From Rhizaria sp. SCN 62-66 (Eukaryota), in NCBI GenBank assembly GCA_001724265.1, contig MEDY01000108.1, forward strand, positions 55,742-75,741: DNA of 20,000 nt, read 5' to 3'. The translations under genes and the position numbers were made by a program. Positions 233 to 18,861 of this stretch are shown here, one piece after another. Every line of letters begins with the position of its first letter. Within the stretch, counting starts at the first letter, position 1. The notes beneath the pieces were generated by a model, which saw only the letters and a program-made list of their open reading frames with translations, had not been told where the DNA came from and did not search any database.

Positions 233-583
233 TCATACAGGGAGACTGCAGACTGCGATACCGGCATCAAACACAGTACCCACGGCCACCAATACCCGCT
301 CTGGGCCGGTCACCATCTCGAACGCATCCTCAAACTGCTCTGACTCGGACTTAGACTCTGTTTTTGACTGCGCCTTTGACTGCGACTGTGAGGGTAAGTG
401 CGAGTGTAAGTGCGAGCGCGAGCGCAGCCGCGGCAGTAATGGTGACGGCAATGGGACGGCGACCGACGATCCGCCGAGCTTGAGCCCTGCGGCCGCTGGC
501 TCTGGCTCCGAGAGCAACGTGATGGCCGCCTGTTTGGGCTCACCAGTCGCCGATAAGGGCACGAACGATACATGCAATGGCGC

Positions 584-636
<53 letters not shown>

Positions 637-3600
637 TTGTAATCAAACCAAACAAACACGAACGAGAAATAAAAGCAATTTAAAGAGAGAAACGCAATTA
701 AGGGAGAGAAAAAACAATTAATGGGAGTAATAACATAAAAGGCAGCAGAGGAGATGCAAAGAAAGGGGAAAAGCATTGGGAGCAATACAAAATGGGGAGA
801 AAAGCACAGGGAGAAGAAGAAGAAAGACAAAAAGCGCAGTTGTTAAATGTGAGAGTAAATGTTTGTTTGTTGTTTTTCGAGATAAGCACGCATCCATTGA
901 CATAAAGCCATGTAAAGTTATACATCGTGTGCAACAGATTGAGATGATTTTAGAGCAGCAGATGCTGATATAACAAACACACAACTCAAAGTGTCAATTA
1001 CGCTGCTCGATAGTAGTTGCAATTAGTCACCAAATATAAACGAAACGAAATAAACACGGATCAAAGTTCTCAGCTGAACCAGTATAAACAAAGCAAACAC
1101 TGTCACTCACCAAGTTTGATTAACGTAAACAAAGCTAAACAAAACCGCAACGCTAAATAAAGCGAAGCTAAGCAAAGCTAAGAGAAGTTCCGATATTCAA
1201 AGAGAGCTCGTATACTATGACATCTCTCTCTGAAGTATTAATAGTGCAGGAATGGCAGACGTACCTAGACTGGAGGGATCAGACGCAGTTGCGATAAAGC
1301 GGTGAATCAACGGATGTGACGCCACCCAAAGCCCCCTCTGCTGCCCATGGTCATTCTTCAGCTGCTCACGGTCACTCTGCTCACCACTGCGAGGATGATT
1401 GTGCACATCGAAGGGGCGGCTTACTTTACTGTCAGAAAGCCAGAGGTTATCAGCAGCACCATCAATCGCCACTGTAGCCACCGCTTTCGTCCCCACCTTG
1501 TACTCATAATACCTCACCTGCTTATTCTTATTCTTCTTCTTACCGACAGCGTCGTCCGCAGTCGCCGTGTAAGTGTCCTCAGTGTGAGTGTCATTGGTGT
1601 AAGGGTGCGCAGTGCAAGTGTAAGGGTATGCGGCTAAACTTCGGTCCTGCGTGGAAGCCACCCAGATTCGTTTCGCTGCCTTATCAATAATGACGCCATT
1701 GGGCTGAGACAGGCCCTCCACCACTAATGAGCACTCAGTACCCATGAGTGCGTTCTCCTTTTTGTTGTTGTTCTTGTTGTTATTGCGGTTACTCGTGGGT
1801 GTAGCACCCGTGAGTGAACAGAGGGCAAGGGAGCCCCAACGACGAAATGAAGCCATTTCGAACAGAGTGCCAGGGCCGTCTGCGGCAGGGGTGTTTAAGA
1901 AGTTACTATTGATGTTGTTGTTGTTGTTGTTGTTGTTGTTGAGAAAGAGGAAAAGAAGGAAACAGCGAGAGATAAAAGAATCAACAGTAAAAAGACGTGA
2001 GAGTGAGTGGGTCAAGTTAGAGGTGGTAAGATTGCGCACGTGCTCATAGCTGCACACATGCTTACGAGTTGTTTCGATGTACAAGAGCGTCATATCCACA
2101 GAAAAATAAATCGACTTATATCAACAAAACACGTGGAGTACATCGAATCATGCGTTTCTTGTGATATCACACTACAAAGCAAACATGTTTAAAGCAAACA
2201 CGTATGCATTCATCAAGCCAATCACATCAAAGCACTCACATCCAAAGCATTGACTCCGTAGCGTCTTATCAAAACATGTGTAAAAGAATTGCCTCCGTAG
2301 CATCACTTCAAAGCGTGTGAGAAACATTGACTCTGTCACAGTCGCAGTGACAGCTTCGTCAAAGCATAACCAACAACTTGCAAAGCACAAGAGTATCTTA
2401 TACAGGCGGCAACCAAAGCTTCTTGTTTTCTCCGACCGATACTTTTGAATAATTAAAGAGTCAAAACAGCACACTTATAACAACAAATAATTAGCATATA
2501 TAACATCAATAATGAAGCAAGCGTGGTAATATGTGAGTAACTAAGCAAACGTACGTCGCCACAAAGGTATCCCTATCGAGAAATGCAACCCCGTTAAGAT
2601 TCCTCAGTTGTTTGGGATGTGATTGGGCATCTGCCACTGCAACTAGCCTCAAAGCCAGAGATGGTAAAAGATCGGTTACGTTTGCACGTAGTTGGCTCAC
2701 AGTTACAACACTCTCACTCTCATCGAAGCGATGACTACCATCACCGTCGCTTTTGTTGTCACCGTCGCTGTTGCTGTTGCTGTTGTTGTTGTTGGTCTCG
2801 TTGTCCCTGTTGCTTGTCGTAGGAGTGGGAGTAATTGAAATGAGGTCAAAAACGGCCACTGCAGGCCCTTTCCGAGCCACCAAAACCACAGCAACTCGAA
2901 TGCCCCCCGCCTCCTTATTATGACTCCTTGTAGTTTCACCACCATTATCACCATCACTATTGTCGTTGCCGTCATCTTGTGATGACGGTGTTGATGATGT
3001 TGACGTTGATTCATCAGTTACTGAGAGTGTGAAACCTAAGGGTTGAAAGTCAGGCCGCGTTTCAAAGTCCCAACCCCTTAGAGGCAGTGCTCGAAACAAG
3101 CCGCCCCCCTTAGATACATCACCCTTAAACTCATTCGACGCGCCCTACTTAGACGCATCCCCCTTAGACGCAGCCAACGCGTTTGCAGCGAGCTTGTTGG
3201 CAGCTTCAATAGCAACATCGTTTGCAATTGCGACTAAAACTGCCCCTTGGTATTGTTGTTTCCCTAACATCGCCAGCCTTCCGGCCGAGGTGGAGAGATC
3301 AAGCCCTTCCCCCGCCCCCGCCATAGTAGGATCCCCTGCCTCCCTCATAGTCGCGGTGGCAACCGATTGGTCGCCGAAAGCGCGGCGATAGGGGGCGGAG
3401 GCGGCGAACAGCAGAGGACCAGCTAAGCGTAAATCCTCAGCTGCACGCATGAGGGGCGAAGAGGCGTCGATAGCGACACAGGAGGACGCTGATGATGCCG
3501 ATGCTGGTGCAAGGGCGCTGTCGATATAGGGCCGGAGAGCGACAGAGAGGAGGCAAAGTATAGCAGAGCACACGTGTTTGGTTTGCGAGAGACACAAAGT

Positions 3601-3919
3601 GAGAGGGATAAAGCGGCATGGCAATAGGACAAAAGGAAATAAACAAGTAAGGTTAATTAAGGATTAAGGAAACGCACGTATACTTGCTTACAAAACGATT
3701 GGCGCCAAGACTAGCGAGATATATGAGAAGATATGTTTCCGGGGAAAGACATCGATGACGAAGGACGGACCTGTTTTTTGTCATAAGAAGCGGTAGCCTT
3801 GCATTGTTGGGGGTGAGAGTGGTGAAAAAGTCGAGAGCTGCAAGGTAGTTATATATGCCATAGGCGAGCGCGAGCGCTAGGAACGCTGATACAGAAGCAC
3901 AACGACTCTTGAGAATCAT
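233..3919 (-). CDS. Paraoxonase/arylesterase (PON-family, Ca2+-dependent six-bladed beta-propeller) protein, ~700 aa. Four exons: 3919-3771, 3517-2555, 1905-1265, 582-233. Contains an in-frame TAG at 3147-3145.
   Basis: Exons joined by hand at GT-AG sites keep phase (2,2,1) and total 2103 nt = 701 codons. The product has an N-terminal hydrophobic segment (VSAFLALALAYGIYNYL) and PON motifs in the correct order: AAEDLRL (PON1 GSEDLEI), DFQPLGF (FNPHGI), LRNLNGVAF..FVAT|N (SVNDIVAV..FYATN), LFEMASFRRWGS, SQPNGVII (FANGINI), GAADNLWL (LVDNISV), WVASHP (WVGCHP), VGTVFDAGIAVCSLPV* (IGTVFHKALYCEL*). Ends in TGA at 233-235. An upstream in-frame ATG at 3997 is also possible. Confidence 0.88.
583..1264 (-). 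other. Intron 3 of the PON-like gene (682 nt, phase 1)
   Basis: Donor AG|GTACGT, acceptor (AAC)n-AG|CG; frame joins DPSSL-A-PLHVSFVP. Confidence 0.8.
584..635. repeat. (GTT/AAC)~17 microsatellite immediately 5' of the intron 3 acceptor
   Basis: Perfect trinucleotide run read directly from the sequence. Confidence 0.95.
1906..2554 (-). other. Intron 2 of the PON-like gene (649 nt, phase 2)
   Basis: Donor AC|GTACGT, acceptor (CAA)n-ATCAATAG|T; splicing rebuilds the conserved FVATN motif. Confidence 0.85.
1913..1941. repeat. (GTT/AAC)~9 microsatellite just 5' of the intron 2 acceptor
   Basis: Perfect trinucleotide run read directly from the sequence. Confidence 0.9.
3145..3147 (-). other. In-frame TAG within exon 2 of the PON-like gene (candidate sense/recoded codon)
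   Basis: ORFs 3145..3624 and 2506..3099 are in the same frame and separated only by this TAG plus 15 open codons (ASKGDASK*GASNEFKGDVSKGGGLFRALPL). Confidence 0.8.
3518..3770 (-). other. Intron 1 of the PON-like gene (253 nt, phase 2)
   Basis: Donor AG|GTCCGT, pyrimidine-rich 3' part, acceptor GACAG|C; reading frame preserved (..KN-S-ALAPAS..). Confidence 0.7.
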
Positions 3920-4286
3920 CGTCCCAGTCGACTTTGCTATGGGTCGGTGGCAGCAAACGGGGGAGTCGGAGGTGTGAGAGCTCGAGGATATGATCATAGA
4001 TCGGGAAATTAATAACCATCCGAACTTTAACGCGCTGTTTAAAACATTAATCTTTAATTATATTCCTTGAAGTTCCGTTTTCACGCTAGGGGATATCTTT
4101 TCGTTAACACTCGCAGCCTTGCCCGGAGCAGCGCGACGAGAGCGACCTAAGTTTGAATTCCTTCCTTCATTTTTCTTCCGCTCACATCTTTCTGGCTTTA
4201 AACAACCACACCTTTGCATTTTTATACTTCTTAAAACCACTCGCACGTGTTTTTAGGGTCGTCTAGATCTTTCGCAGAGCTTGCGA
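3920..4286. promoter_or_regulatory. Short head-to-head intergenic region (likely shared/bidirectional promoter plus 5' UTRs)
   Basis: About 370 bp between the divergent inferred start codons at 3919 (-) and 4287 (+); more AT-rich than the exons. Function is inferred from position only. Confidence 0.5.
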
Positions 4287-7200
4287 ATGCGTCCCTCAGG
4301 CTCAGGCTCAGGCTCTGTCAGTGGCAGCGGTGGCAGTGGCATTCCTATTGCTCCCCCTCCTACTCCTCTCCCGTACGCTCTATCACTTTTTAACAACATT
4401 TATACCAACTTACACCATTATTTTGTGTTATCTCCTGATCATTTGGCTTAGCCACAACGTATTATCTCTTTGAAACCCTGTTTCGTCAACCACAATCATC
4501 CCTCATCGTTTTCGTTTCTCCTATCTTTACTCTTTGATACCTTCCTCCCTTTTAGCCCCGCTGCATTGCTCTCCAAGCTCCGCGCAATTCCGGCCGTTTC
4601 GCAAGCGTCCCTTACCCCTCAAGCCGTTACCGACCTCAAATGGGGGTTTGTCGAGCCTACCTTAGCTGCTTTAGCAAGGGCTTCTGGATCAACAGCTATT
4701 GATGATCTAGTTGAATCACGTCGTAAAGAAAGGGCGTTTGAACGGGCATCTCCTCTGGGACCGAACAAAGCGCGCGAGGCGGCGTATCAGGTACGCGTAC
4801 TTCCATGTATACTAATTAGATTCGCACTGTTACTGCACTTACATTCAAACACTCGCTTGAGATTGAGAAGTCTTGATCTGATTTGCAGATGTGATGCTTG
4901 TAGACTATACTTTGCTTTGGCTTGATGAGTCGCTACGATATTCGCTATATATATGAGTTATTTACTCACAAAATGCAGTTTTCCTTCAAGATTGATTCAT
5001 ATTCGCTCACATCTTTGCTGTTTCATTCTTGCTTCTCTTGTTTGGTTCATGTTGTTCACGACTACCATTTACCTTGCGTTTACATATTGCATATATCTGT
5101 CGACACTTTGTGCTGTCACTCTATCTTTTCGCTTTGTATATGTGTCTTAGGCGGCTTGTCTTAAAACAGCGGCTAATATTGCATCTGTTTCCTTACCCGC
5201 CCCCTCACAGTCACAAGCTGTTATAAGCCGCCTTTCTCAAAACTCTCATAACTCTCAAAACTCAGCCTCTAATGCTGCTGCTGCTGCTGCTGGTTTGACT
5301 GGTGACAAAGGGGGGGTTTCAGTTTCAGTTGTTGCTGTTGAGAAAGTGACTGTAGCATCGGTTTTGACTGCTTTGGCCGCAAAGGCGGCTTATGTTTCGA
5401 CAGCGACTGAGAGTATGCCTGGCCAGGGCGTTTCCACCAAACAACAACAACAACAACAACAACGCTTGCAACAACAACAACAACAACAACAGCAACAGCA
5501 ACATCAGCAGCAGCAACAGTCTCAAATGCAGTCACAACTGAAATCTCCACCTCAACCTCAGCCTCAGCCTCAGCAGCAGCCTCAGCAGCAGCCTCAGCAG
5601 CAGCAACAGCAACAGCAACAGATTACAGAGTTGCAGCAGCGTTTGTCGCAATTGCAAGCTATGGTTGCTCACCAACATCAACCTCAGTCTTTACAACAAC
5701 AACAACAACTACAACAACAACAGCAGCAGCAATTACAACAGCATCAGCATTTGCAGCAGCAGCAACAGCAACAACAAAGGGGTATGATTGCAACACCTAG
5801 CCGTTTTTCAGCAAGGCCACAGTCACCTATCATCACCCCTGCCTTTGCCGCTGCCCCTTTTGCCACATCTGACCCTCATGCAGAGTCTATTTCTCATCAA
5901 TCTCAGTCTGCGAATGCGCAGGGGCGGGGGCCTGGTGCCAGAGTAGAGAGACGGGGGCCTGCGGGTTTAACAACGGCACAGCTGCAGCGGCCACAATCAG
6001 GTCGTGGCCTAGTAAATACTGTTAACAATAATAACACTATCAACAACATCAACAATATCAGTCCTAGTAACGCTACGAATAACAGCATTGTCAATCCTAG
6101 GAGTACGAATCACAATAGTATCGTTTACTCTGATTCTTCGAATGCCGGCTCTGCGAGTGCTGCTTTCACTGCTAATGCCAACGCTGTTTCTTCCTCCTCC
6201 AACGCGACTGCAACTGGGGCTGCCACGGTGACTGATGTTTTCAGCACAGGCCTCGGCCGCCGCCGACCTGCCCCCGCTACTATGGCGGGGGCGGGGGGCG
6301 CTATGGCGGGAGCGGGGGGGTCGTCGTCATCGTCGATGTTGTTGGAGAAGGGAAAAGTAGGGGCTACGCTGGCAGCTTTGGCTGGAGGGCCTGATGTTGA
6401 CGATGATGACAACGGTCACGCTGCGCAAAAACAGCAACAACAACAAAAACAGCAGCAGCAGCAACAACAACAACAGCAGTTTCAACAATAGCAGCAGCAG
6501 CGGCGGCCTCAGCAGCCTCGATGGCATCATCCTGATGACGACCACGACGACGATAATGATGGCCGCTTTAACGCCGATAACGATGACGTCAACGGTCGTT
6601 TCCGTTACCACAGCGCCACTGAGCCCGAGCCGGAGCCAGAGGCTGAGGCTGAGTTTGAGAATGGAGCTGTGACGGAGGCTGGAGCAGGAGCTGCTTTGAG
6701 TAATCACAATTCCCGTGTCAATACTAAAAAAACACCCCTTCCTGGCTCTAGCTCAAACTCAAAATCTAAACCCAGCAGCAGCAGCAGTAGCGGCGGCGGC
6801 GGCGGCAGCGGCGGCGGCGACAAAGGGGGTGATGCTGGTAGTAATAACGGTAGTTTGATGGCTACTTTACGCCGGGCTCAGGCCCGAGCTTCAGCTGAAT
6901 CCTCTCGGGCTGAGAAGGCTGAACGCATTGCCGCCGCCGCACAACGGGAGATAGCTTTATTACGACAACAGCTCGAAAGGTCCGAGGCTGCTTCCGCCGC
7001 CGCTGCCGCCGCCGCCGAACTTGTTGCTGAAACGGCTGAGGCTGCTGAAGCCGAGGCTGCTGAGGCGACGAAAGCAGCAACTGCAGTCGCGGCGGCGTCA
7101 GCGGGGGCGGGGGCGACTCATGCAGCCTCTCTCTCTCACGCTGCTGCCGTTGGCTATAACAATAATAATAACTCTAGCAATGGCACTGCTACTGGGAGTG

Positions 7201-10200
7201 GTTCTACTGCGTCTGGCTATGATCGTGGCAGCCCTCTCCCTATGCCTCCGCGCAATCGTACTCGCACTAGCAACATCAGTAATAATTACAGCAACAGCAA
7301 CAGCAACTCAACTGCTGCTGCTACTACTAATCCTGCTACTGCTGCTTCTCATCCCACTGCTGCTTCGAATGTATCAACAGCGGCAGCGGCGGCGGCGGCG
7401 GCGGCGGCGGCAACTCGATGTGCTTCCTTAGCACCTAACGCCAATAGTTGCCCCCACTGTCCCTTGTCATTACTTGCCGCGTTAGATGCCGTAGCCCTTG
7501 CAGCCGGCGCCACAGCCGCTTTGACTGGGCTCCATCAAGATGCTGAATCTATGCTCGCGTCGGCAAGCGCTCACAGTCAAAGCCACGGCGGTGGCGGCGG
7601 TGGGAGTAATCTTTCTACGGCAGTGCCAGTGGTTGCAGTCAGGGCATTAGCAAGCTCTCTAGCTGCTGCTAAGGCTGCCACTGCTGAAGGGGTCTTGGCG
7701 TTACGCTCCCGCATTGGCTGCGGCGGCAGTGGTCAGAGCCACCACAACAACAACGGTTACGGTGATAGTAATAATGATGGTGATTATGGTGTTGGCGGCA
7801 ATAGTAGCGATGGTGTCTTTGCTTCAGCTCCTTTCCGTAGCCGCTATTCAAACTCATCTCACAACTCCTCAGTTTCTCCTCATACTGTCACACTCGTGGC
7901 GGGCAACGGTGTGTCGATGACTCTCGAAGCACAGCCCTTCATGGCTGTCCCTTCCGCACATGTAAGTGCACATGAAAATGTAAGTGTGGGTCCTACAACA
8001 CCTGCTGCGAATGTGAGTGCGAGTGTAAGTGCGAGTAATACACTTGCTGCGTCTGCTTCCCTCGCAGCCTCAACAGGTCTTTCATTCCTTCACGTCTCAA
8101 CTCCTACAACAACAGCAGCAGCGGCGGCGGCGGCGGCGGCGGCGGCGGCCGCAGAGTGCGGCTTAACTTCCTGCGCCGGGGCTGACCCAGCCTCCGTCCG
8201 CCGCCTCTTAACCGCCGCCGCTACCATGGCGGGGGCGGGGGGCGGTGTAATAGCGGCGGTGGCGGCGGTGGCGAAGACTGTGACTATACCTGGAGGAGCT
8301 TTGCAATCGTGGGCTGAGGCTGAAGCTGCTGCTGAAGCTAGTTATCTATTCCCCTCTCGCCCACAGCCGGAATCGCACGTACACTCGCAATCTCAGTCAA
8401 ACGCGCAGAGGTTGCCTAGTTTAGTGTTGACGCGTGCTTCCTTATCCACACTTGCTGCTTCGCTGCAGAGGTTACAAACGGCTTTATCAGCACACGCACC
8501 GTTACTCGCAGCCGCCTCTGCCGCCGCACCCTTAGGCGCTGCCTTAGGGCTGTTGAGCCACGACGCCCGGGCGCTCGCTAATGCTGACGCGTCTTCTAAC
8601 TCGAATGCGAGCGCGAGAAAGCGCGGGTTAGGCGGGTCGCAACAACGAAGCGGCGGTTTTGCCAGCGGGCAACGGCAGTCAGCTACTACTACTGCGCGGA
8701 ATAGCAGTAGCAAGAGTGGCGGCAGCCAGAACAACAACAGCAACAATCGACCTAAATGGTCCCACGTCGCCGCTAATAATAACAGCAAGAACAACGCGTT
8801 TGACGAAGATGACGGCTATGACAACAACCACTACGACGATGTCAATAGCGATGATGCTTATGATGCAGACTCTGATTCTGACGCTGATGCTCGTCCCAGC
8901 GGCAGCTCTGCGGCGGCGGCGGCGGCGTTATCTGGTCTTTCCCCGTTTTTATGTCTCGCCGCCTCGTCCTACTCTGATAGTAGTAGTAATTCTAACAGTG
9001 GTGGTGGTTTTGGGAGTGATGATGGTTCAACTGTCGCCGCCCCAGGTTTGCCTGATCTCATCACTGCAGTCGCTGCCGCTCAAAGCGCAATCGCATCGGT
9101 CGCCCCTTTGCTTACAACACCATTAACCCCCGCCACCCTCTCTGCCCTCGGTAGTAACTCACCACTCTCAAAAATGGCAACATCAACACCAACAACAAAT
9201 GCGACTAAAACAAACTCAAATGCGGTCAAAACAGTTCCGAACGCAACGAAACGCTCTGCAGCCGCCGCTGCTGCCGCTTCTGCAAATAGCAATGCTGCCA
9301 ATCGGGCCAACACTATGTTTCGGTTCAACTTTGGCGGCGAGTCACCTGCTGTTTTGCGTGGCTTAGCAGTGTTGGGGGCGCATTCAATCGCCCCTCCTGC
9401 CGCGGCCGCGGCGGCAGCGAACGCAGCCGCCTCCACACTCGCCAAAAGGGCCTTTAACGCTGATGCCGCTACTGCTGCTTCTGCTACTGCTGCTGCTGTT
9501 GGGAGTAGTGGTTTAAATGTCGCCAGTGCTTTAGATGCTGATTTACTCCGCGGGGACTCGAGGCTCGCCCTCTCAGCCCTCCGGGCCACAGCTTTGCTAG
9601 CGGCTGAACAACACGCTCTCGCCCGCCGTGCTAATGCAGCTGCAGCTTCTTCTAACCGAGGTACCACTGGTGTTTATAAGACTGTTGGTAATGATTACGA
9701 TGATGATGATTCGGTTAAGTTCGACAGGGACGCAGATATTGAGGCAGCGTTGGCGGCTTCCGCAGACCCAACTACTGTGACCGATTACCGTAACCGTTTT
9801 GCTATTCCTTCTGTCTCATGCTTCTTTAACAACAACAATAACAACAACAGCAATAGCAACAATAATGGCAACAGTGGTAATAATGAGAATATGAGGTGGT
9901 TACCGCTACTATTACAAGGTCTCGGCCAATCAACAGCAGCAGCAGCAACAACAGCAAATGCATCAACCTGTGCGACTACTGCTGCTGGGGGAGCAGGTGC
10001 CGTCACGGACTCCCTTTTAGCCCTTGCTGTCGACCACGCAACCTCCACCCTTTCCCCTGATAACACTCTCAGCAACAACTCCTCCCACTCTGACCTAAGC
10101 CCGAGTAGTAATCACGCTCATGCCAGCGCTAGGGCACTGTTAGCTGTCTTGTTGTCCCTGCGCAATAGTTTAGCCGCCGAGCGTTCCGCCGCCCGCACCT

Positions 10201-12782
10201 TAACCCACGCGTTACTCCTCGAGCGCGGCTTCCTGCGCCGGGCACTCCACGCACACACTCGAGCTCTGGCTCCGCTTTTGACCCGTGTCGACGCTGTCTC
10301 GGCAGCGTTTGCGGCCGCGGCGGGCGGGGCGTATAGGCAGCTTGATGCGCTGCTGAGGGAGGGGCTGGCTCCTGGTGTAAGGGTTGATGCCGGACCCTTA
10401 GTTGACGGCCTTGGCGGAAACAGCAGTAATAACGGATCAATAGGCTCTGGCGCTGGCGCTGGCGCTGGTAATGTTGGTGTAAGTGCTAATGTAAGTGCTT
10501 CGCGTTTGACAGTGCCATCGTCACAGTTCGCTCTCTCAACTCTCGCCGCTACAGTGCCACACTTGCTACCACTGCTTAAAGGAGCAGCACGTGCCTTAGG
10601 GTGCCGCCCAGTCACTCGCCCTCATAGCAGTAGTATTATTGCGCAGCCACCGGTGGCATTGGGATATTACGCCGGTTTCGCACCGCCGCCGTCGCCGCCG
10701 TCGCCCTCCTCCGTTGCTGATGCTATTGTCAAGACCGCATTGGTTTCAGATGCTGCGTCAGCGTCAAATGCAGCATTTTCTGCTGATTCAGCGGCAGCAG
10801 CATCGGCGGCGGCGGCGGCGGCGTCAGAAGCAGCGGTTGCAGAGGCGGTTCGAACTGGAACATTGTTGCCGTGTCACTATTCGCTGTCGCTGGCGCGGTG
10901 GAGGTCGGCTGTCGCCGGGTCAGTGGCGGCTTATATTCGCGCTTTGAGTAGTCTCGACGCATCGTCACTGCAACCCACTTCCTCTCATCACCCCACTCAC
11001 CCTGGTATTCACAACGCGTACGCTGCTGCTGCGGGTCCACGCTGGAGTCCGTATGGCTGGGGCGATCTCTGCGCTGTTTTGGGAGCTGTGGCGCGCTCTA
11101 AAGCCAAAGTAAGGGCTCGTAGCAATCGCAATAACAACATCAACAACAACAATATCAGTACCAGTGGCGGCAGTAAAGCTAAGGTGACGGTCAAGATAGG
11201 TGTTGGAGCGAGCGCGATTGTAACCAAACCTGCTGCTGCTGCTGCTGCTGCGGCAGGGAGTAGGACTCAGACTAAGGCTACCACAACATCATCAGCAGCA
11301 GCAACAACAACAGCAGCAGCAGCAGCGGCAGCAGAAGTTAAAACAGCGGTTTCACGGACAGTCTCTGGCCGGGGAGATGTGCTTGGCGACAACGCCAGTG
11401 ATGTGAGTGCTGCTGCTGGCTCTGCTGCTGATGCAGTTGCAGTTAAGAATGCGACTGTGACGGAAGAAAGTGAACTTGAGTCGGAGTTAGAGTCAGATTT
11501 GGATGTTGATATGGACACTGGACTTACCGATGACGCGGTTGACGCTGATGACAACAACAACAGCAACAGCAATGATGATGACGACGATAATGACGAAGAT
11601 AATGCTGATTCTGATGGCTATGACGATGACGACGACGAAGGTGATGACAGTGTCAACGACGATACGACCAACGATACTACTGCTAATTACGATGACGACG
11701 ACGACGGCGACGCTGATCGTAACAATAGTTACAGCGCTGCCGTTGGAAACAACCACAACAACGAAGACGATGACGTCAACGTCAGTCGTGGCGGCAGCAC
11801 CGGCGGCGGCGGCGACGACGACGAGTCAGTGCCAGGGCCAGCGCCAGTGTCAGAGTATGTGCCAGTCAAAGTGCCAGAGTCTGCGCTCGAGTCTGTGTCA
11901 GTGCCAGTCAAAGTGCCAGTGTCAGTACCGGTGAGGGCGTTGACTAAGCGCGTGCATTTCGATGCTAGTGTCTATCAAAACAGTTCCGGTTTCGACGACA
12001 GCGGCGATGGCTACGACAGCAACCAGGGTTATCTCAGCAACGGCGGCGGCGGCAGCAGCAGCAGCAACAGCAACGCTGCCGCCGTTGCAGCGGCAGCCGC
12101 CTCTCGACAGCAACAGCAGCAGCAGCCTCAGCCTCAGACGAGGGCTCGATGGGCGGTTCCTCCTGCTGCCGCTGCTGCTGCTGCCACAAACCGTCAGGAA
12201 CACTCAGGCATGAGTACCGGCGACTTAAGTACCTCCGGTGTAAGTACCGGTGGCGCAGTGAGGCCGGCGTGGATTGATCATCTCAGTGACTGGGGACCTG
12301 CCCACAGTCATTTAGCTGCTGCTCACGGTCACTCCGCTACTGCTGCTCACGCTCAGTCGGCTGCTCACGGTCACGCACAGTGGCTTGATGAAGAAAGCGC
12401 TGACGACGATAATACTGGTGACAACAACAACAGCAGTAGTGGCGATAACAGCGGCCGTTCCGCACTCGCTCCCGCCCATGCCCCTGCGACTGCCGCTGCT
12501 GCTGCTCATGCTGCTGCTTTTCTGCCTGTGTCGAGGACCGCGACCGCTGCTCCGACTGCGGCTGCTGCTAGGACTGCAACCGTTACAAGGACTGCGAATG
12601 CAGCTGCGGCTGGGAATGCAACTGCGACGAAGAACGCTGCTGCTGCTGCTCCTGCGGCTGCGAGCGCGGCTGCTGTTGTGCCTGTCGGCGCGCTAACAAG
12701 TGGCACTGGTTCAATAGCGTCGACGACGGCGATGTTGAGTGAAATGCAGCGGCTGCAAGATATGCTAGATCGATTCCAGTAA
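4287..12782 (+). CDS. Very large (~2650 aa) low-complexity protein of unknown function with poly-Q/A/N/D/G tracts and probable coiled-coil segments. Three exons: 4287-4372, 4556-4790, 5151-12782 (alternative acceptor at 5211). Contains an in-frame TAG at 6489-6491.
   Basis: ATG at 4287 (MRPSGSGSGS..), donors GTACGC at 4373 and 4791, acceptors TTTAG|4556 and CTTAG|5151, all phase-compatible (2,0). ORFs 5295..6491 and 6669..12782 share a frame and the 59 codons between them are open. Heptad-like stretches include LRRAQARASAESSRAEKAERIAAAAQREIALLRQQLERSE and the C-terminal MLSEMQRLQDMLDRFQ. Ends in TAA. No family recognised. Confidence 0.8.
4373..4555 (+). other. Intron 1 of the large gene (183 nt, phase 2)
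   Basis: CC|GTACGC ... long polypyrimidine tract ... TTTAG|C; frame preserved. Confidence 0.75.
4791..5150 (+). other. Intron 2 of the large gene (360 nt, phase 0; alternative acceptor CACAG at 5210 is also in frame)
   Basis: CAG|GTACGC donor, AT-rich interior, pyrimidine-rich 3' end, acceptor TCTTAG|GCG. Confidence 0.7.
5441..5777 (+). repeat. CAA/CAG poly-glutamine and QP-repeat region (coding)
   Basis: Several runs of CAA/CAG and CCTCAG units in the reading frame of the large gene. Confidence 0.9.
6489..6491 (+). other. In-frame TAG inside a poly-Gln run of the large gene (candidate sense/recoded codon)
   Basis: CAG CAG TTT CAA CAA TAG CAG CAG CAG CGG; the frame stays open for more than 2000 further codons. 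Confidence 0.8.
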
Positions 12783-13319: not shown

Positions 13320-15514
13320 TCACTTCAACTCGTCGCGATTTGCGCAAATATCCCCGACAATCGGCGTGAGACAGCGGTACAACTCCATCGCTTGCTCATA
13401 CCCTTGCCCCGTCACCATCCCATCCAACAGCAACTGCGACAACGCCTGCCGTCCGCCTGCAGCGAAAAACGCCGCAATGTACTCATTCCTCGCCGCGCTG
13501 CGCGGGGAGGTGGTGGTGGCGGGGACCTCCCATAGCAAAGGGTCGGGGAAGATGTCGCCGAGCTGGATCATAATTCGCACAGTGTCTAAAACGCGGTTCA
13601 GCGTCCTACCTGAAGGGGCGATCCCAGCTTCGGCAGCAGCGGCAAGAGTACGTGCGCAGTATTGCATTGCGCCAGACTCTAACATAGTATGAGCAACTTG
13701 GGTAACGAGACTGGGAGGGGTATTTCGCCCGCTGCCGCCACGACCACCACCGCCGCCACCGCCGTCAGTCATCGCTGCCGCGGCAGTCGCCGCCACCGCG
13801 GCTTCACTTAAAGCGACATCAGTCCCAGTCGCAGTCGCAGTGGTTGACACGGCTTCACTTAAAGTAGCCGATGCGGATTCACTTTGATTAACCGCAGCGG
13901 CTTCACTTAACGCGCTGTATAGCACCCACGACATTTCATACGCCACTCCCCACTTCGGACTGGCGATATCCCTCACAGGTACCGGCACCCGCGGTAACAA
14001 CACCTGCAGTACACGTGACTGCAGCACCACGCGTGCCACCATCACAGGTCCGTCGCTGATAAGATTACCCAATAACCATGCCAATTCTTTCCATTGAACA
14101 AAGACATCTGCGCTAATGCGCCTTTCTCCTTCCCCGCCGCCGCCTCCGCCGCCGCCTCCGCCACCGCCTCCGCCGCCGCCGCCTCCGCCCAGCCCCAGAG
14201 GCAGCGGCCCCAGAGGCCCGGGAGCCTCTATCTCTATAGCAGCAGCAAGATGGGTCAAATGCGCCAGTACATCCAGGGTGAAAATGCGTGTCACGAATGC
14301 GCTGTTAAGCATCGCCGCGTTGCCAAGTAGCCTGAGCGCGGGTAGCCGTAACATCCGTAGCCTGGAGCTGTTCAGAGATGACTGCTGAGACTGAGACTGG
14401 AGGGATGAGAGGACAAGCTGGAGCAACTCGCTCCCCATCCCCTCACTATGGGGGGACGAGAAGTCCCCCGCCTTGTGACTATGAGAGTCACCCGCCTCTT
14501 CACTATAGGAAGGGAGGAGGAGGCGCTGGAAACACGCGAGTGCGCTCGGCGCGCTAAAAACAAACGAGAGCGCGTTTAAAGTCTCAGAAAGTATACTGAT
14601 ATCATCATAATCACTTTCGCTATCATTATCATCGTCGTTATTGCCATTATTGGCAAGAGCACGTGCGTGATCGGAGTTGTACTGGTCAGAGTTAGAACCC
14701 CCATTGCGGCCATTGACGTCAGTAGCAGCAGTATCAGCATTGCCAGCAGCAGCACCGATAGCGGCATTATAATCGTCGTTGTCAGTGTCGTTCATAAGGA
14801 GACTGCGGCGGCTGCTGTGGCTGCAGCCACGGTTTTGACTGGTGGTGGTGGTGATGGTGATGATATTGAGGCTGAAACAGAGTCTGTGCAGAGCCAAAAG
14901 AAGCGGCCTAACATATTGCTCAGTCACAATGAATGGTAATGGCGGTTTTACGGCAAGACACGCGTTTACGGTCTCTATCAGAGCCTTTCGCACTGGGGCA
15001 AAACCAGTCGTAGCAGGAATGTGAGTTAGCCCTGCCTCTCCATAACCAAGACGATTGCTATAAAGCTGAAGCTGAGGCAGAAGATAGCTATTATTTGGAT
15101 TATTAATACTATTGCTATGATTGTGGTGAGCTCCTCGAGTGACACAAGTTCCTTCGTTGGAGTGATAGTGGCCGATACAGTTACGGTCGTTACTGCTACT
15201 GCTGCTGTTGTTGTTGTTGTTGTTGTTGTCATAACCGTATATTTGCAGGGTACACCGGCACAAGTGGGTGACGACTCCAGTGTTAATGAGCGTGCTGACA
15301 GCGGCTCGGGAGCCGCTACGTGCGAGGTTACCTATGATCACAAGTGCCAGATCAGCTGTTGTCGCATCGAATATCGGCGGTGAAGCAACCGTTACTGCAT
15401 TTACTGCTTTCACGGTCACAGTCGTAGGCACTCCAACCGCAGTGACAGCGGCAGTCGCATCGGTGGCAACAACATCAGCAGCATCAGGTGTCTCAGAAGG
15501 AGTAGGATCATCAA

Positions 15515-15546
<32 letters not shown>

Positions 15547-16025
15547 TTGTTCAAGGAGGGAAGTGGCAGAAAACGGGAACATAGTTTCTCAGGAATCTTG
15601 CACTTAAACAGTGCAATTGACCCCACGTGTGTTTCGGCGAGGTTCGCGAAGAAGACGAGAATATGCCTTTTCCACGCACAGTCGATTTGATTGTTGATTG
15701 TGACAGAGTTCAGCAGCCAGTCAAACACGTGATATTCTTCGCATAGGTTGATACCGGTCCAGAGATCGCTGTCAAGGAGAGTCTTTAACCGAACGAACGC
15801 CGTTGCTGCCGCCGCCGCCGTTGCAGCCGCCGCTGCTGCTGCTGTTGCTGTTGCTGTTGCTGGGGCGGTAGCGGCGGCGGCAGCAGTGGTGGCGGCGGTG
15901 GCGGTGGCAGTTGAGACAGGTGCGGCTGTGGTGACTGTGGCAGCGACAGAAGCAGCTGACAGAGAAGTTAGGTCGGCTAAGATGTTGTGAAACTCAACAT
16001 AAAACTGATCATCTTCCCGCAACAT
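13320..16025 (-). CDS. Divergent importin-alpha-like armadillo (ARM) repeat protein, 901 aa, with low-complexity insertions
   Basis: Long uninterrupted ORF with ARM helix-3-like motifs: LVFFANLA, ALVIIGNLA, CLAVKPPLPF, ILSETLNALSFV, LPALRLLGNA, KELAWLLGNL, YEMSWVLYSA. No basic IBB domain visible. Ends in TGA. The 5' end may be preceded by an intron acceptor (CCTTAG at 16037-16032). Confidence 0.7.
14132..14190 (-). repeat. Poly-glycine (GGC/GGA) coding repeat, ~20 Gly
   Basis: Read directly in the ARM ORF. Confidence 0.9.
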
Positions 16026-16804
16026 CTGCGTCTAAGGATAGGGTAAAAGCGAGCAAGATCGCGCAGTATATGTACAGTCGTTTCCACGTAGAAGACAGAA
16101 ACTTGTGAGGGAAGCAAGAGACTTCACGGAATTAACGGAATATCTTAGGCTCGCGATGGTTTGCGGCTGTCAAGGTTTCTGTTGTCGTTGTGTACCGAAG
16201 GCAATTAAACCAACACAATAAAATGAATAATATGGCAAAATACCCGCAGATATACACCTAAGTGACATGTGAAGCGCGAGGTAATGTGAGATAAAAAGGC
16301 AATATGACATGAAATGATGAGTTGCGCTTGGAGCAACGGGAGTGTGGTTGGCGTGGAAAAGTAGGATCAGTTCGTGGCAATCAACAGCGCATATAAAGAT
16401 TCTGCAAATGTTTACACATAGAATTATACGTTTTAATTCTATTGATTGCAGGCGAATGTGCTTACACGGTTATTTAACAGCGCACATCTCTCCCAAACTT
16501 TAGCTTAGCCTTGTCGATCCAAGTCCAGGTGGAAAGGGTCGATTTGTAGTGAGTTACTAGTACGTACGGTACATGTACTAGTATTGTTATATCATGAATT
16601 GCACCATTATAACAGTGATATTGTTGTGTATGTACACGTAGCAGACATAGATTCATATATATATATATTATAAGCATCGAGGCTCACTCACAATTGGCCA
16701 TTTTTCTTCATTCAACAATCTCTCTCTATCACAGTCCAAACTAAAGCATTCAGGCACGCGCAGTAACTCAAGCTCTCACGATGTCACGGTCCGAGGCGCC
16801 GGGC

Positions 16805-18091
16805 TCACATCTGCGCGCACTGCGGGCCCGCACCGCCGTGGCCGCGGCCGTGCGCGTGCGCCAGCTCCTCCTCCTGCGCCTGGATGGCGGCCTCATCCTC
16901 CTCCTGCTGCTCCTGCAGCCGCTTGGCGACGGCGGCGGAGAACTGGCCCGCCTCGACCACCTCTGGATCGACGCCCGCAGGCAGCTCGGGCGCGGGCGCG
17001 GGCGCGGGCAGCAGCGGCCTCAGCGCGGCGAGCAGCGCGGGGGACACGTCACGCGGCATGCGCACCCGCAGCTTGATGTAGAGGTCGCCGCGGTGCGCCG
17101 GGTCGCCGACCTTGGGCATGCCCTCGCCCGGCACGATGACCAGGTCGCCGGTGTTGGCCGCGGCGTTGGCGGGCGAGACGACGGTAACGAGGCGCCCGTC
17201 GTAGTGCTCGAATGTGTAGGTCCAGCCGCCGAGCGCCTCGATGAGCTCGATCTCGCGCTCCAGCAGCAGGTTTGTCACGCTGTCGCCCATAAGCGAGAAC
17301 ATCGGACGCAGCGGCGATGGTGGCGTCTTGCGTTTGCGCGCGCGGACCTCATCCGACTCGAGCGTGAGCGTGACGATCACGTCGCCGGGCTCCACGTCGG
17401 GCGCCTCGTCAGCCTCGCCGGGGAAGACGATTTGCTGGCCCGCACGCATGCCGCGCGTGACCACGACCTCGATCTCCTTGGTCACAGGAACCGTCTTGGT
17501 GCCCTTGCAGCCCGTGCACGCGTCTTCGGGGCGCAGCACGGAGCCCGTGCCGCGGCAGCCGTCGCAGGGCCCGACGAACTGCTGCACCATGTTGCCCTGG
17601 CGGATCATGCGCATGCTCTGGCCAGAGCCGCGGCACTTGCCGCAGGTCGCGTCGACGCCGGGTTTCGTGGTGCCCTTGCCCGCGCAGTCCACGCACACGC
17701 GCTTGCGCGAGATCTTCAGCCGCGCTGTCTTGCCGTTGTACAGGTCCTCCAGCCCGACCGAGAGGGAGAAGGGCACGTTCTGCGTGCGCTGTGGCCCGCG
17801 GCGGCCGCCGCCGAAGCCGAAGAAGCCGCCGGCGCCGGCGTCGGGGTTGCCGCCCGCCTCGAGCCCCTCCTGGCCGTACTCGTCGTAGATCTTGCGCTTC
17901 TTGGCGTCCGTCAGCACCTCGTAGGCGTTGTTGATCTCCTTGAACGTCTGCTCCGCCGTCGGGTCGCCCGGGTTGCGGTCTGGGTGCGTGCGGATCGCGG
18001 CGCGCTTGAACGCCTTGCGGATTTCGTCATCGGACGCCGTGGGAGCAACGCCCAGGAGGTCATAAAGCTTGGTGTCTTTCGCTGCAGGCAT
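16805..18091 (-). CDS. DNAJA: Type I DnaJ/Hsp40 co-chaperone (DNAJA/Ydj1 family), 428 aa, intronless, C-terminal CaaX prenylation box
   Basis: N-terminal J-domain (DTKLYDLLGV..HPD..FKEINNAYEVL), G/F-rich linker, LEDLYNGKT motif, four CxxCxGxG-type zinc-finger repeats (CVDCAGKG, CGKCRGSG, CDGCRGTG, CTGCKGTK), C-terminal domain (GEGMP..GDLYI), ends PQCAQM* (TGA). Confidence 0.97.
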   Translation of the reverse strand: MPAAKDTKLYDLLGVAPTASDDEIRKAFKRAAIRTHPDRNPGDPTAEQTFKEINNAYEVLTDAKKRKIYDEYGQEGLEAGGNPDAGAGGFFGFGGGRRGPQRTQNVPFSLSVGLEDLYNGKTARLKISRKRVCVDCAGKGTTKPGVDATCGKCRGSGQSMRMIRQGNMVQQFVGPCDGCRGTGSVLRPEDACTGCKGTKTVPVTKEIEVVVTRGMRAGQQIVFPGEADEAPDVEPGDVIVTLTLESDEVRARKRKTPPSPLRPMFSLMGDSVTNLLLEREIELIEALGGWTYTFEHYDGRLVTVVSPANAAANTGDLVIVPGEGMPKVGDPAHRGDLYIKLRVRMPRDVSPALLAALRPLLPAPAPAPELPAGVDPEVVEAGQFSAAVAKRLQEQQEEDEAAIQAQEEELAHAHGRGHGGAGPQCAQM

Positions 18092-18861
18092 TGTGACGAC
18101 AAATGGGCTGCTTGAGGAAAGTGGTGTGGTTTACTGAGACGGTAAGTGGAGAGGAAGAAGTGAAGGAAGGCAGTGAGTTAGTCTGAAAGGGAGTTTGAAC
18201 GAATGTGGCGTGCAATCGTCAGCACAATAAATATAATTAATGTAAGTAAAACTCAGTGTTGATTTAGTGCGTTTTATCGCTGATTTGCGTTGAAATACGA
18301 CGCAGATGTATCAATATGCTTGAAACAAAATTCCCCCCAGTCCCTCTTCGGTCGGTCGTTGGAAAGATTTATTCGAGAGAGTTCTCGAACTTGTGGCCGA
18401 GACCTCCCCACCACAAACGCATTTTTGAAACACACAATCACGGATATAACGCGCCTAAACAATGTTTAATCATTTGACATAATGAATAAAGCGATATTTT
18501 TGGAGAATACATTATATATATCAAATTCGCCTTCATTTGACATGTTTGTCCTGCTTATAAATGCTTTATGTGTGGCTCAAATCGAACCTCTCATTGCCCT
18601 TATAAACTAGCTCTAGGTTATGCATGTGTCAGTCGAACTTTCCGTGATTGAGTCCGAGTGGCCCATTAGCATTAGTAGTGATCAATCATGCTGATGATCA
18701 TAGTCTATACTCTTACCATAAACTCTGCATATGACTGAGTGACACTCTCAAGAGGACATCGAACGTGTGACAATACCGTTGCAGATCCATGTTGCAACGC
18801 ACTTCCATGTGATGATTTGTTCTCGTGTGTGCTGTTCTGCTGTTGTTGATGCGCTGAGCAG

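Follow-up and report, generated by a model that had tools for sequence, protein, structure and literature searches.

The window, by which we mean the whole 20,000-nt stretch of DNA analysed here, carries a minus-strand gene that reads as complete except for a single in-frame TAG, and the question it raises is whether that triplet is an error, a mutation, something removed from the RNA, or a codon. The TAG (3147-3145) is flanked by open frames of 172 codons before it and 212 after, and lies in the second of four exons joined by the donors GTCCGT, GTACGT and GTACGT and by AG acceptors (Table 1). The spliced gene measures 2103 nt and holds only two stop triplets, the TAG at codon 174 and a TGA at codon 701; it would yield a full 700-residue protein. 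As stated in the original prediction, the TAG stands in frame within an otherwise complete gene, and the short repeat around it has the sequence described there. Two of the introns end, at 583-660 and 1906-1950 (minus strand), in long (CAA)n runs near the acceptor AG, behind a pyrimidine tract.

Table 1. Features of the window that bear on its two in-frame TAGs
Feature	Position	Strand	Remarks
Exon 1, PON/SGL-like gene	3771..3919	-	ATG; hydrophobic N-terminal segment
Exon 2, PON/SGL-like gene	2555..3517	-	Contains the in-frame TAG; orthologous exon P0275 open across the region
In-frame TAG	3145..3147	-	Codon 174 of 700; predicted sense codon, likely Glu; identical in run X4
Short imperfect repeat around TAG	3104..3171	-	13 residues absent from P0275 begin a few codons past the TAG
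Exon 3, PON/SGL-like gene	1265..1905	-	Weak Pfam Arylesterase and SGL matches
Exon 4, PON/SGL-like gene	233..582	-	Terminator TGA at 235-233
Second in-frame TAG	6489..6491	+	In a poly-Gln run of the neighbouring gene; flanked by open frames of 446 and 2096 codons
Long low-complexity frame	5151..12782	+	Continuous only with the TAG read through; TAA end

A base error at the window TAG is very unlikely, because a contig of run X4, from another study, covers 2807-3963 with 0 differences from the window. That identity contradicts the read-level error that the original prediction had allowed for. Sequencing or assembly error is also an extremely improbable account of the in-frame TAGs found elsewhere in the genome (see below). 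The genome does appear to be derived from a metagenome, its best-matching labelled runs being bioreactor and wastewater metagenomes, but the same letters recur in X4 for the window TAG and in the separately assembled locus L190 for the TAG of the eRF1 gene, and errors would not favour TAG.

A search of 1.84 billion representatives found a single orthologous exon, P0275. It aligns with exon 2 on both sides of the TAG (pairwise E=6e-22), and its last residues suggest that the two exons stop at the same intron; this supports the earlier suggestion that the full-length protein is under selection. The TAG itself sits in a poorly aligned stretch just ahead of the 13-residue insertion relative to P0275, so that this site alone cannot reveal the encoded residue, as had been cautioned. 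Doubt had also been cast on a 72-nt intron across the TAG. The candidate is present as sequence (3148-3077), but we reject it, since splicing it out would delete an ALPL segment that is conserved in P0275.

The assignment of the product to the PON family stood only in part. Exon 3 scores 17.5 bits against Pfam Arylesterase, below the cut-off of 21.3, its SGL match is also below the cut-off, and the other exons, scanned one by one, have no Arylesterase match. The Atlas neighbours of exon 3 are Arylesterase, SGL and strictosidine-synthase-like clusters with a weak recognition score, and the protein's sequence matches to structures are to designed propellers only. Motifs EDL, LNG, PNG, ADN and SHP can be read in it by eye and may correspond to the calcium-ligand motifs of PON1. 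The gene thus resembles the six-bladed propellers of the paraoxonase/arylesterase (PF01731) and SGL (PF08450) families in its N-terminal hydrophobic segment, in these candidate motifs and in its weak Pfam and Atlas matches, and differs from them in falling below the Pfam cut-offs, in its long low-complexity insertions and in that the His dyad of PON1 is not evident. For a gene with such weak matches, 'PON/SGL-like propeller' is a more cautious label than 'PON-family enzyme'. A homologue search with exon 3 returned only the gene's own fragment. Public protein sets contain two fragments of the gene, P0274 and P0122, split at the TAG and at introns; P0274 is the piece of exon 2 left by standard gene calling, an example of how standard gene callers split this organism's genes at TAG.

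Elsewhere in the window, the plus-strand frame with the second TAG (about 2500 codons) is rich in runs of Gln, Ala, Asn, Ser and Asp. Two further genes, both on the minus strand, end in TGA and contain no TAG: a 903-codon frame at 13320-16031, which by eye may resemble ARM-repeat/importin-alpha proteins, and a DnaJ-like gene at 16805-18130 with a GC3 of 0.9.

We then looked at stop-codon use across the genome (G000; 34.9 Mb in 714 contigs), of which about 3% was sampled. With a codon-pair model trained on 585,741 bases, 965,517 bases (~0.97 Mb, some overlapping) were scored; plain counting of long ORFs was abandoned as a test, being swamped by shadow frames. Clean gene ends were defined as coding ends without a splice donor and with AT-rich sequence behind them. 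Among the best non-overlapping frames there were 61 such ends, 37 TAA, 24 TGA and 0 TAG, while all 12 TAG 'ends' led into GC-rich sequence and 11 of them were followed by an open frame of at least 60 codons. When all frames were considered, coding-like sequence continued past 20 of 49 TAGs versus 3 of 181 TAAs and TGAs (Fisher p=1e-12). Most of the 17 TAG cases that failed this continuation test look like shadow frames. True terminators favour G at +4 (38/61 overall; TAA 26/37, TGA 12/24), and the 17 failed TAG cases do not (4/17). In this sample, then, UAA and UGA terminate, and there is no clear case of UAG as a terminator. At L142:1030-1035, two consecutive TAGs follow an acidic tract and precede 44 open codons that run to a TGA; the pair may represent two sense codons, and if not, it is the strongest case for termination at TAG. 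A long open frame also follows the TAA at L066:2194, which was dropped as an in-frame TAA because it looks intergenic.

In-frame UAG occurs in conserved coding regions of many genes, and the window TAG is one of dozens found within genes of this organism. After removal of splice acceptors, internal TAGs were left in eRF1, five kinases, SUV3, a PARP zinc finger, two ubiquitin proteases (UCH) and a Ras-family protein; alignments to PDB structures are gapless at the TAG for eRF1, SUV3, a NEK-like kinase, a CaMK-like kinase and zf-PARP. The TAGs dropped as acceptors lay at domain edges and comprised those of 4 of 9 TAG-only kinase rows and 2 further kinase rows, 2 of 3 helicase rows, the kinesin row, both dynein rows, the DEAD row, and 2 of 3 Ras TAGs. 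All inspected domain rows with TAA or TGA (L107, L108, L114-L116, L186 and L189) proved intronic, with no exonic in-frame TAA or TGA among them; further TAA/TGA rows (kinesin C66, HSP90 C101, kinase C6, and SNF2, UCH and Ras rows) lie outside this inspected set. Scans for ABC and AAA domains found no in-frame stops.

These alignments bear on the idea that the TAGs disappear from the RNA, through cryptic introns or through editing (A-to-I giving Trp, or U-to-C giving Gln). Many domain-edge TAGs did prove to be splice acceptors, and no RNA contig spans the TAG at 3147 or at 6489, run X7 among them leaving the TAG at 3147 uncovered. Against this, the 72-nt candidate intron would remove residues common to P0275, five proteins align without a gap through their TAGs, Trp has the lowest Pfam sum of the seven residues compared below, and removal in the RNA would leave a tRNA with a CUA anticodon unexplained. 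We therefore regard it as quite improbable.

This tRNA gene (L132:1486-1558, contig C84), of which one copy was found in the genome, has all four stems paired when checked stem by stem with G-U allowed, a short variable loop and a U-run behind it; its minimum-energy fold is not the full cloverleaf (z -1.5). Other tRNA patterns and a DNA search with tRNA-Glu found no CUA tRNA, the gene being recovered by one further pattern, and it was not found in viral contigs. Its nearest relative is the organism's own tRNA-Glu(CUC), with 47 of 73 positions identical and a score of 21 versus 9.5 for the next; identities to Glu(UUC), Lys and Gln tRNAs are 46, 42 and 38 of 73. The body is of the Glu type: it agrees with both Glu tRNAs in the first five acceptor pairs, with Glu(CUC) in the T stem and with Glu(UUC) in the discriminator G. 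Since its divergence from the two Glu tRNAs is close to that between them (49/73 identical) and its stems are intact, it looks like an old paralogue rather than a fresh mutant. Position 38 is A, giving C32-A38, and is C in both Glu tRNAs. An engineered human tRNA-Glu(CUA) is reported to read UAG over 20 times better with a C32-A38 change, and in its optimised form to insert ~95% Glu and ~4% Lys; the G30-C40 pair described for that tRNA is absent from the one found here (PMC12204705). The gene is presumably expressed and its product presumably charged with Glu. Among the tRNAs in the loci examined (63 of 506 tRNA candidates scored) none had a UUA anticodon.

The single eRF1 gene found in the genome itself contains an in-frame TAG (L001:1596-1594, contig C63, minus strand), at the position equivalent to Glu107 of the human protein. 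In 117 homologues this position is E in 106, D in 10 and V in 1, and K or Q in none. A metagenome scan for eRF1 returned 1 identical locus and 31 distant ones; no distant locus has a TAG at position 107, and 3 metagenome loci have Q there. The protein also differs from all 117 homologues by T32S, G57S and L124M. The closest relative, P0004 (84%), has V at 107 and keeps T32, G57 and L124. S57 and M124 each recur in one distant locus (L197 and L200, respectively), and T32S is therefore the most specific of the three changes. Thr32 makes a bond to the G of UAG; in Iotanema it is reported to be replaced by Gly, and in the standard-code relatives of Iotanema to be intact (PMC5304391, PMC9161772). 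Going by these positions, T32S and the other changes may weaken UAG recognition, and an eRF1 altered in this way would likely ignore UAG.

The TAG codon is rare. A random sample of 144,713 codons held 21 TAG sites, versus 4255 GAG and 872 GAA, which puts TAG at ~0.4% of Glu codons and below ATA (103), the rarest sense codon listed for the sample. Dynein exons contain 0 TAG in 19,158 codons, with ATA and TTA avoided there too. Selection therefore seems to act against TAG, a hint that its decoding is slow or incomplete. The same rarity would suit a standard code in which each TAG is a nonsense mutation, either of a young pseudogene or of a tolerated allele, with at most leaky suppression, as would the fact that the TAGs fall on variable surface positions. 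Nonsense mutation would, however, produce TAA and TGA as well, and only 3 of 181 of these passed the continuation test and none of their inspected domain rows was exonic. In addition, the sole eRF1 gene found has a TAG, TAG is absent from all 61 clean gene ends, and the divergence of the CUA tRNA from the Glu tRNAs (47 and 46 versus 49 of 73), together with its intact stems, points to an old, selected gene. We consider a standard code hardly probable, and it is highly probable that UAG is a sense codon.

Which residue it encodes is less sharply defined. Pfam score sums over eight TAG sites were 603.4 for E, 603.4 for K, 601.8 for Q, 599.8 for S, 594.9 for Y, 592.9 for L and 588.8 for W; Leu, Tyr and Trp thus lie 8-15 bits below Glu over the eight domains, Leu by 10.5. 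Three further sites showed no clear preference among E, Q and K. A cross-validated context test on 29 of 35 sites (6 low-complexity sites dropped) gave K 8.7 and E 4.3, and the E-K difference, -4.4, fits Lys codons and falls under the 5% point for Glu codons. In a previous, in-sample form of the test the top four residues were K, Y, M and H, with E in tenth place. This test can mislead, because it prefers K at the eRF1 site although the homologues show E there. Homologues have E at the TAG column of eRF1, D or S in SUV3, Q or I in the NEK-like kinase, K or Y in the CaMK-like kinase and S or G in PARP, D also being the residue of human SUV3 and, at the L111 site, of two kinase paralogues; no TAG stood at an invariant Glu column among the sites examined. 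Such a mixture would be expected if a rare codon arose through point mutations where the protein tolerates them, and it leaves room for Lys and Gln. The likely assignment to Glu rests mainly on the body of the CUA tRNA and on eRF1 site 107.

We propose, with a probability of about 0.72, that this organism has a nuclear code in which UAG encodes Glu and UAA and UGA are stops. Its nuclear genes, in this reading, close with UAA or UGA and contain UAG in frame only rarely; these UAG codons would have a tRNA of their own, of the tRNA-Glu type and with the anticodon CUA, and would likely be read as Glu. The analysis also supports a cause for the window TAG that the original prediction had not named, namely genome-wide reassignment of UAG and nothing peculiar to the PON-like gene. 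It is unlikely, though clearly less so than a standard code, that UAG is instead read as Lys, Gln or a mixture. The CUA tRNA keeps U35 and could be charged by LysRS or GlnRS, the context test favours K, the Pfam sums tie E with K, and the TAG at 6489 lies within poly-Gln; amber tRNAs elsewhere are reported to accept Lys or Gln through mischarging (PMC9976931), and the engineered tRNA-Glu(CUA) gave ~4% Lys (PMC12204705). Weighing against it are a tRNA body of the Glu type, not of Lys or Gln, and the E or D found at eRF1 position 107 in 116 of 117 homologues (though Q occurs in the 3 metagenome loci).

The eRF1 TAG stands in strongly codon-biased sequence (local GC3 0.95), a class to which 1 of the 21 sampled TAG sites belongs, and is followed by AAA, the only AAA among the exon's 16 Lys codons. 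At the average TAG rate, a single TAG within ~430 codons has a chance of ~1 in 20. One speculative reading, which we consider doubtful, is that an old and barely used UAG=Glu code persists in a probable cercozoan flagellate, with eRF1 still competing for UAG and its own in-frame UAG acting as a feedback sensor: more eRF1 would truncate more of its own synthesis. Bacterial RF2 limits its own synthesis in a comparable manner. Plant eRF1 is reported to be autoregulated by a different route, readthrough combined with NMD (PMC5397192). If such feedback were real, the organism would offer a natural, stable ambiguous-intermediate code with built-in control.

The identity of the organism was addressed with marker genes. 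The 11 dynein heavy-chain loci in the genome suggest a flagellate. Its cytosolic HSP90 (L189, contig C490) is fast-evolving, with a branch of 0.63 versus a median of 0.054, and nearest to the environmental proteins P0142 and P0229; in a tree of this one gene with few named rows, the long branch falls in a clade (SH-aLRT 88) with the cercozoan Mataza and a row labelled Euplotes, with Leptophrys and Lapot outside. We take the organism to be an uncultured wastewater protist, probably a cercozoan flagellate. A search for the polyubiquitin junction pattern as a lineage marker found nothing. The rDNA of contig C706 (L162:4459-8903, L163:211-7330) is very divergent and AT-richer than the rest of the genome, and may belong to another organism. 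Group I introns match it at 9 places, of which 4 lie in the SSU gene and the other 5 within the LSU gene or next to it. The first of the SSU insertions is long and could contain a putative homing endonuclease frame.

To our knowledge, UAA and UAG almost always change meaning together. The published UAG-only nuclear codes are a handful, to Leu, Gln or Ser (PMC5304391, PMC11687900). We found no published report of nuclear UAG=Glu with UAA as a stop in article texts, whose supplements may list further variants, and no paper on UAG reassignment in a cercozoan in the literature from 2018 on. In Iotanema spirale UAG is reported as Gln and in the rhizarian exLh (Sainouroidea) as Leu, with a CUA tRNA only predicted there (PMC5304391). 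The organism studied here is like both in its predicted nuclear sense UAG with UAA and UGA as stops and, like exLh, is a probable rhizarian; the eRF1 threonine of the GTS motif is replaced by T32G in Iotanema and by T32S here. It differs from them in its predicted Glu and poorly scoring Leu, and in that a CUA tRNA gene was found. An exLh-type code, with UAG at Leu positions and a Leu-type tRNA, does not fit, Leu scoring 10.5 bits below Glu over the eight sites and the tRNA having a short variable loop and a body of the Glu type.

Among other UAG-only codes, phyllopharyngean ciliates are reported to use UAG for Leu or Gln, Protocruzia tuzeti for Gln and Scotinosphaera for Ser, and in five phyllopharyngeans UAG occurs in 78-91% of genes and makes up 6.5-32% of its codon family (PMC11687900); the present organism differs in residue and lineage, and in that UAG is ~0.4% of Glu codons. 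Codes with Glu are reported from Oligohymenophorea sp. PL0344 (UAA=Lys, UAG=Glu; PMC10553269) and from peritrich ciliates and Blastocrithidia (UAR=Glu; PMC11687900, PMC12153298). PL0344 and Blastocrithidia, like the present organism, have a Glu-type CUA tRNA (PMC10553269, PMC12153298). In all of these UAA is reassigned too, with a dual role in Blastocrithidia, whereas in the present genome TAA is the commonest terminator and no in-frame TAA could be confirmed within an exon. A natural tRNA-Glu(CUA) with C32-A38, together with an eRF1 that apparently tells UAG from UAA, could be useful for genetic code expansion and nonsense suppression. With UAG use about a hundredfold below that of the ciliate and Blastocrithidia codes, this genome could also test codon-capture against ambiguous-intermediate models.
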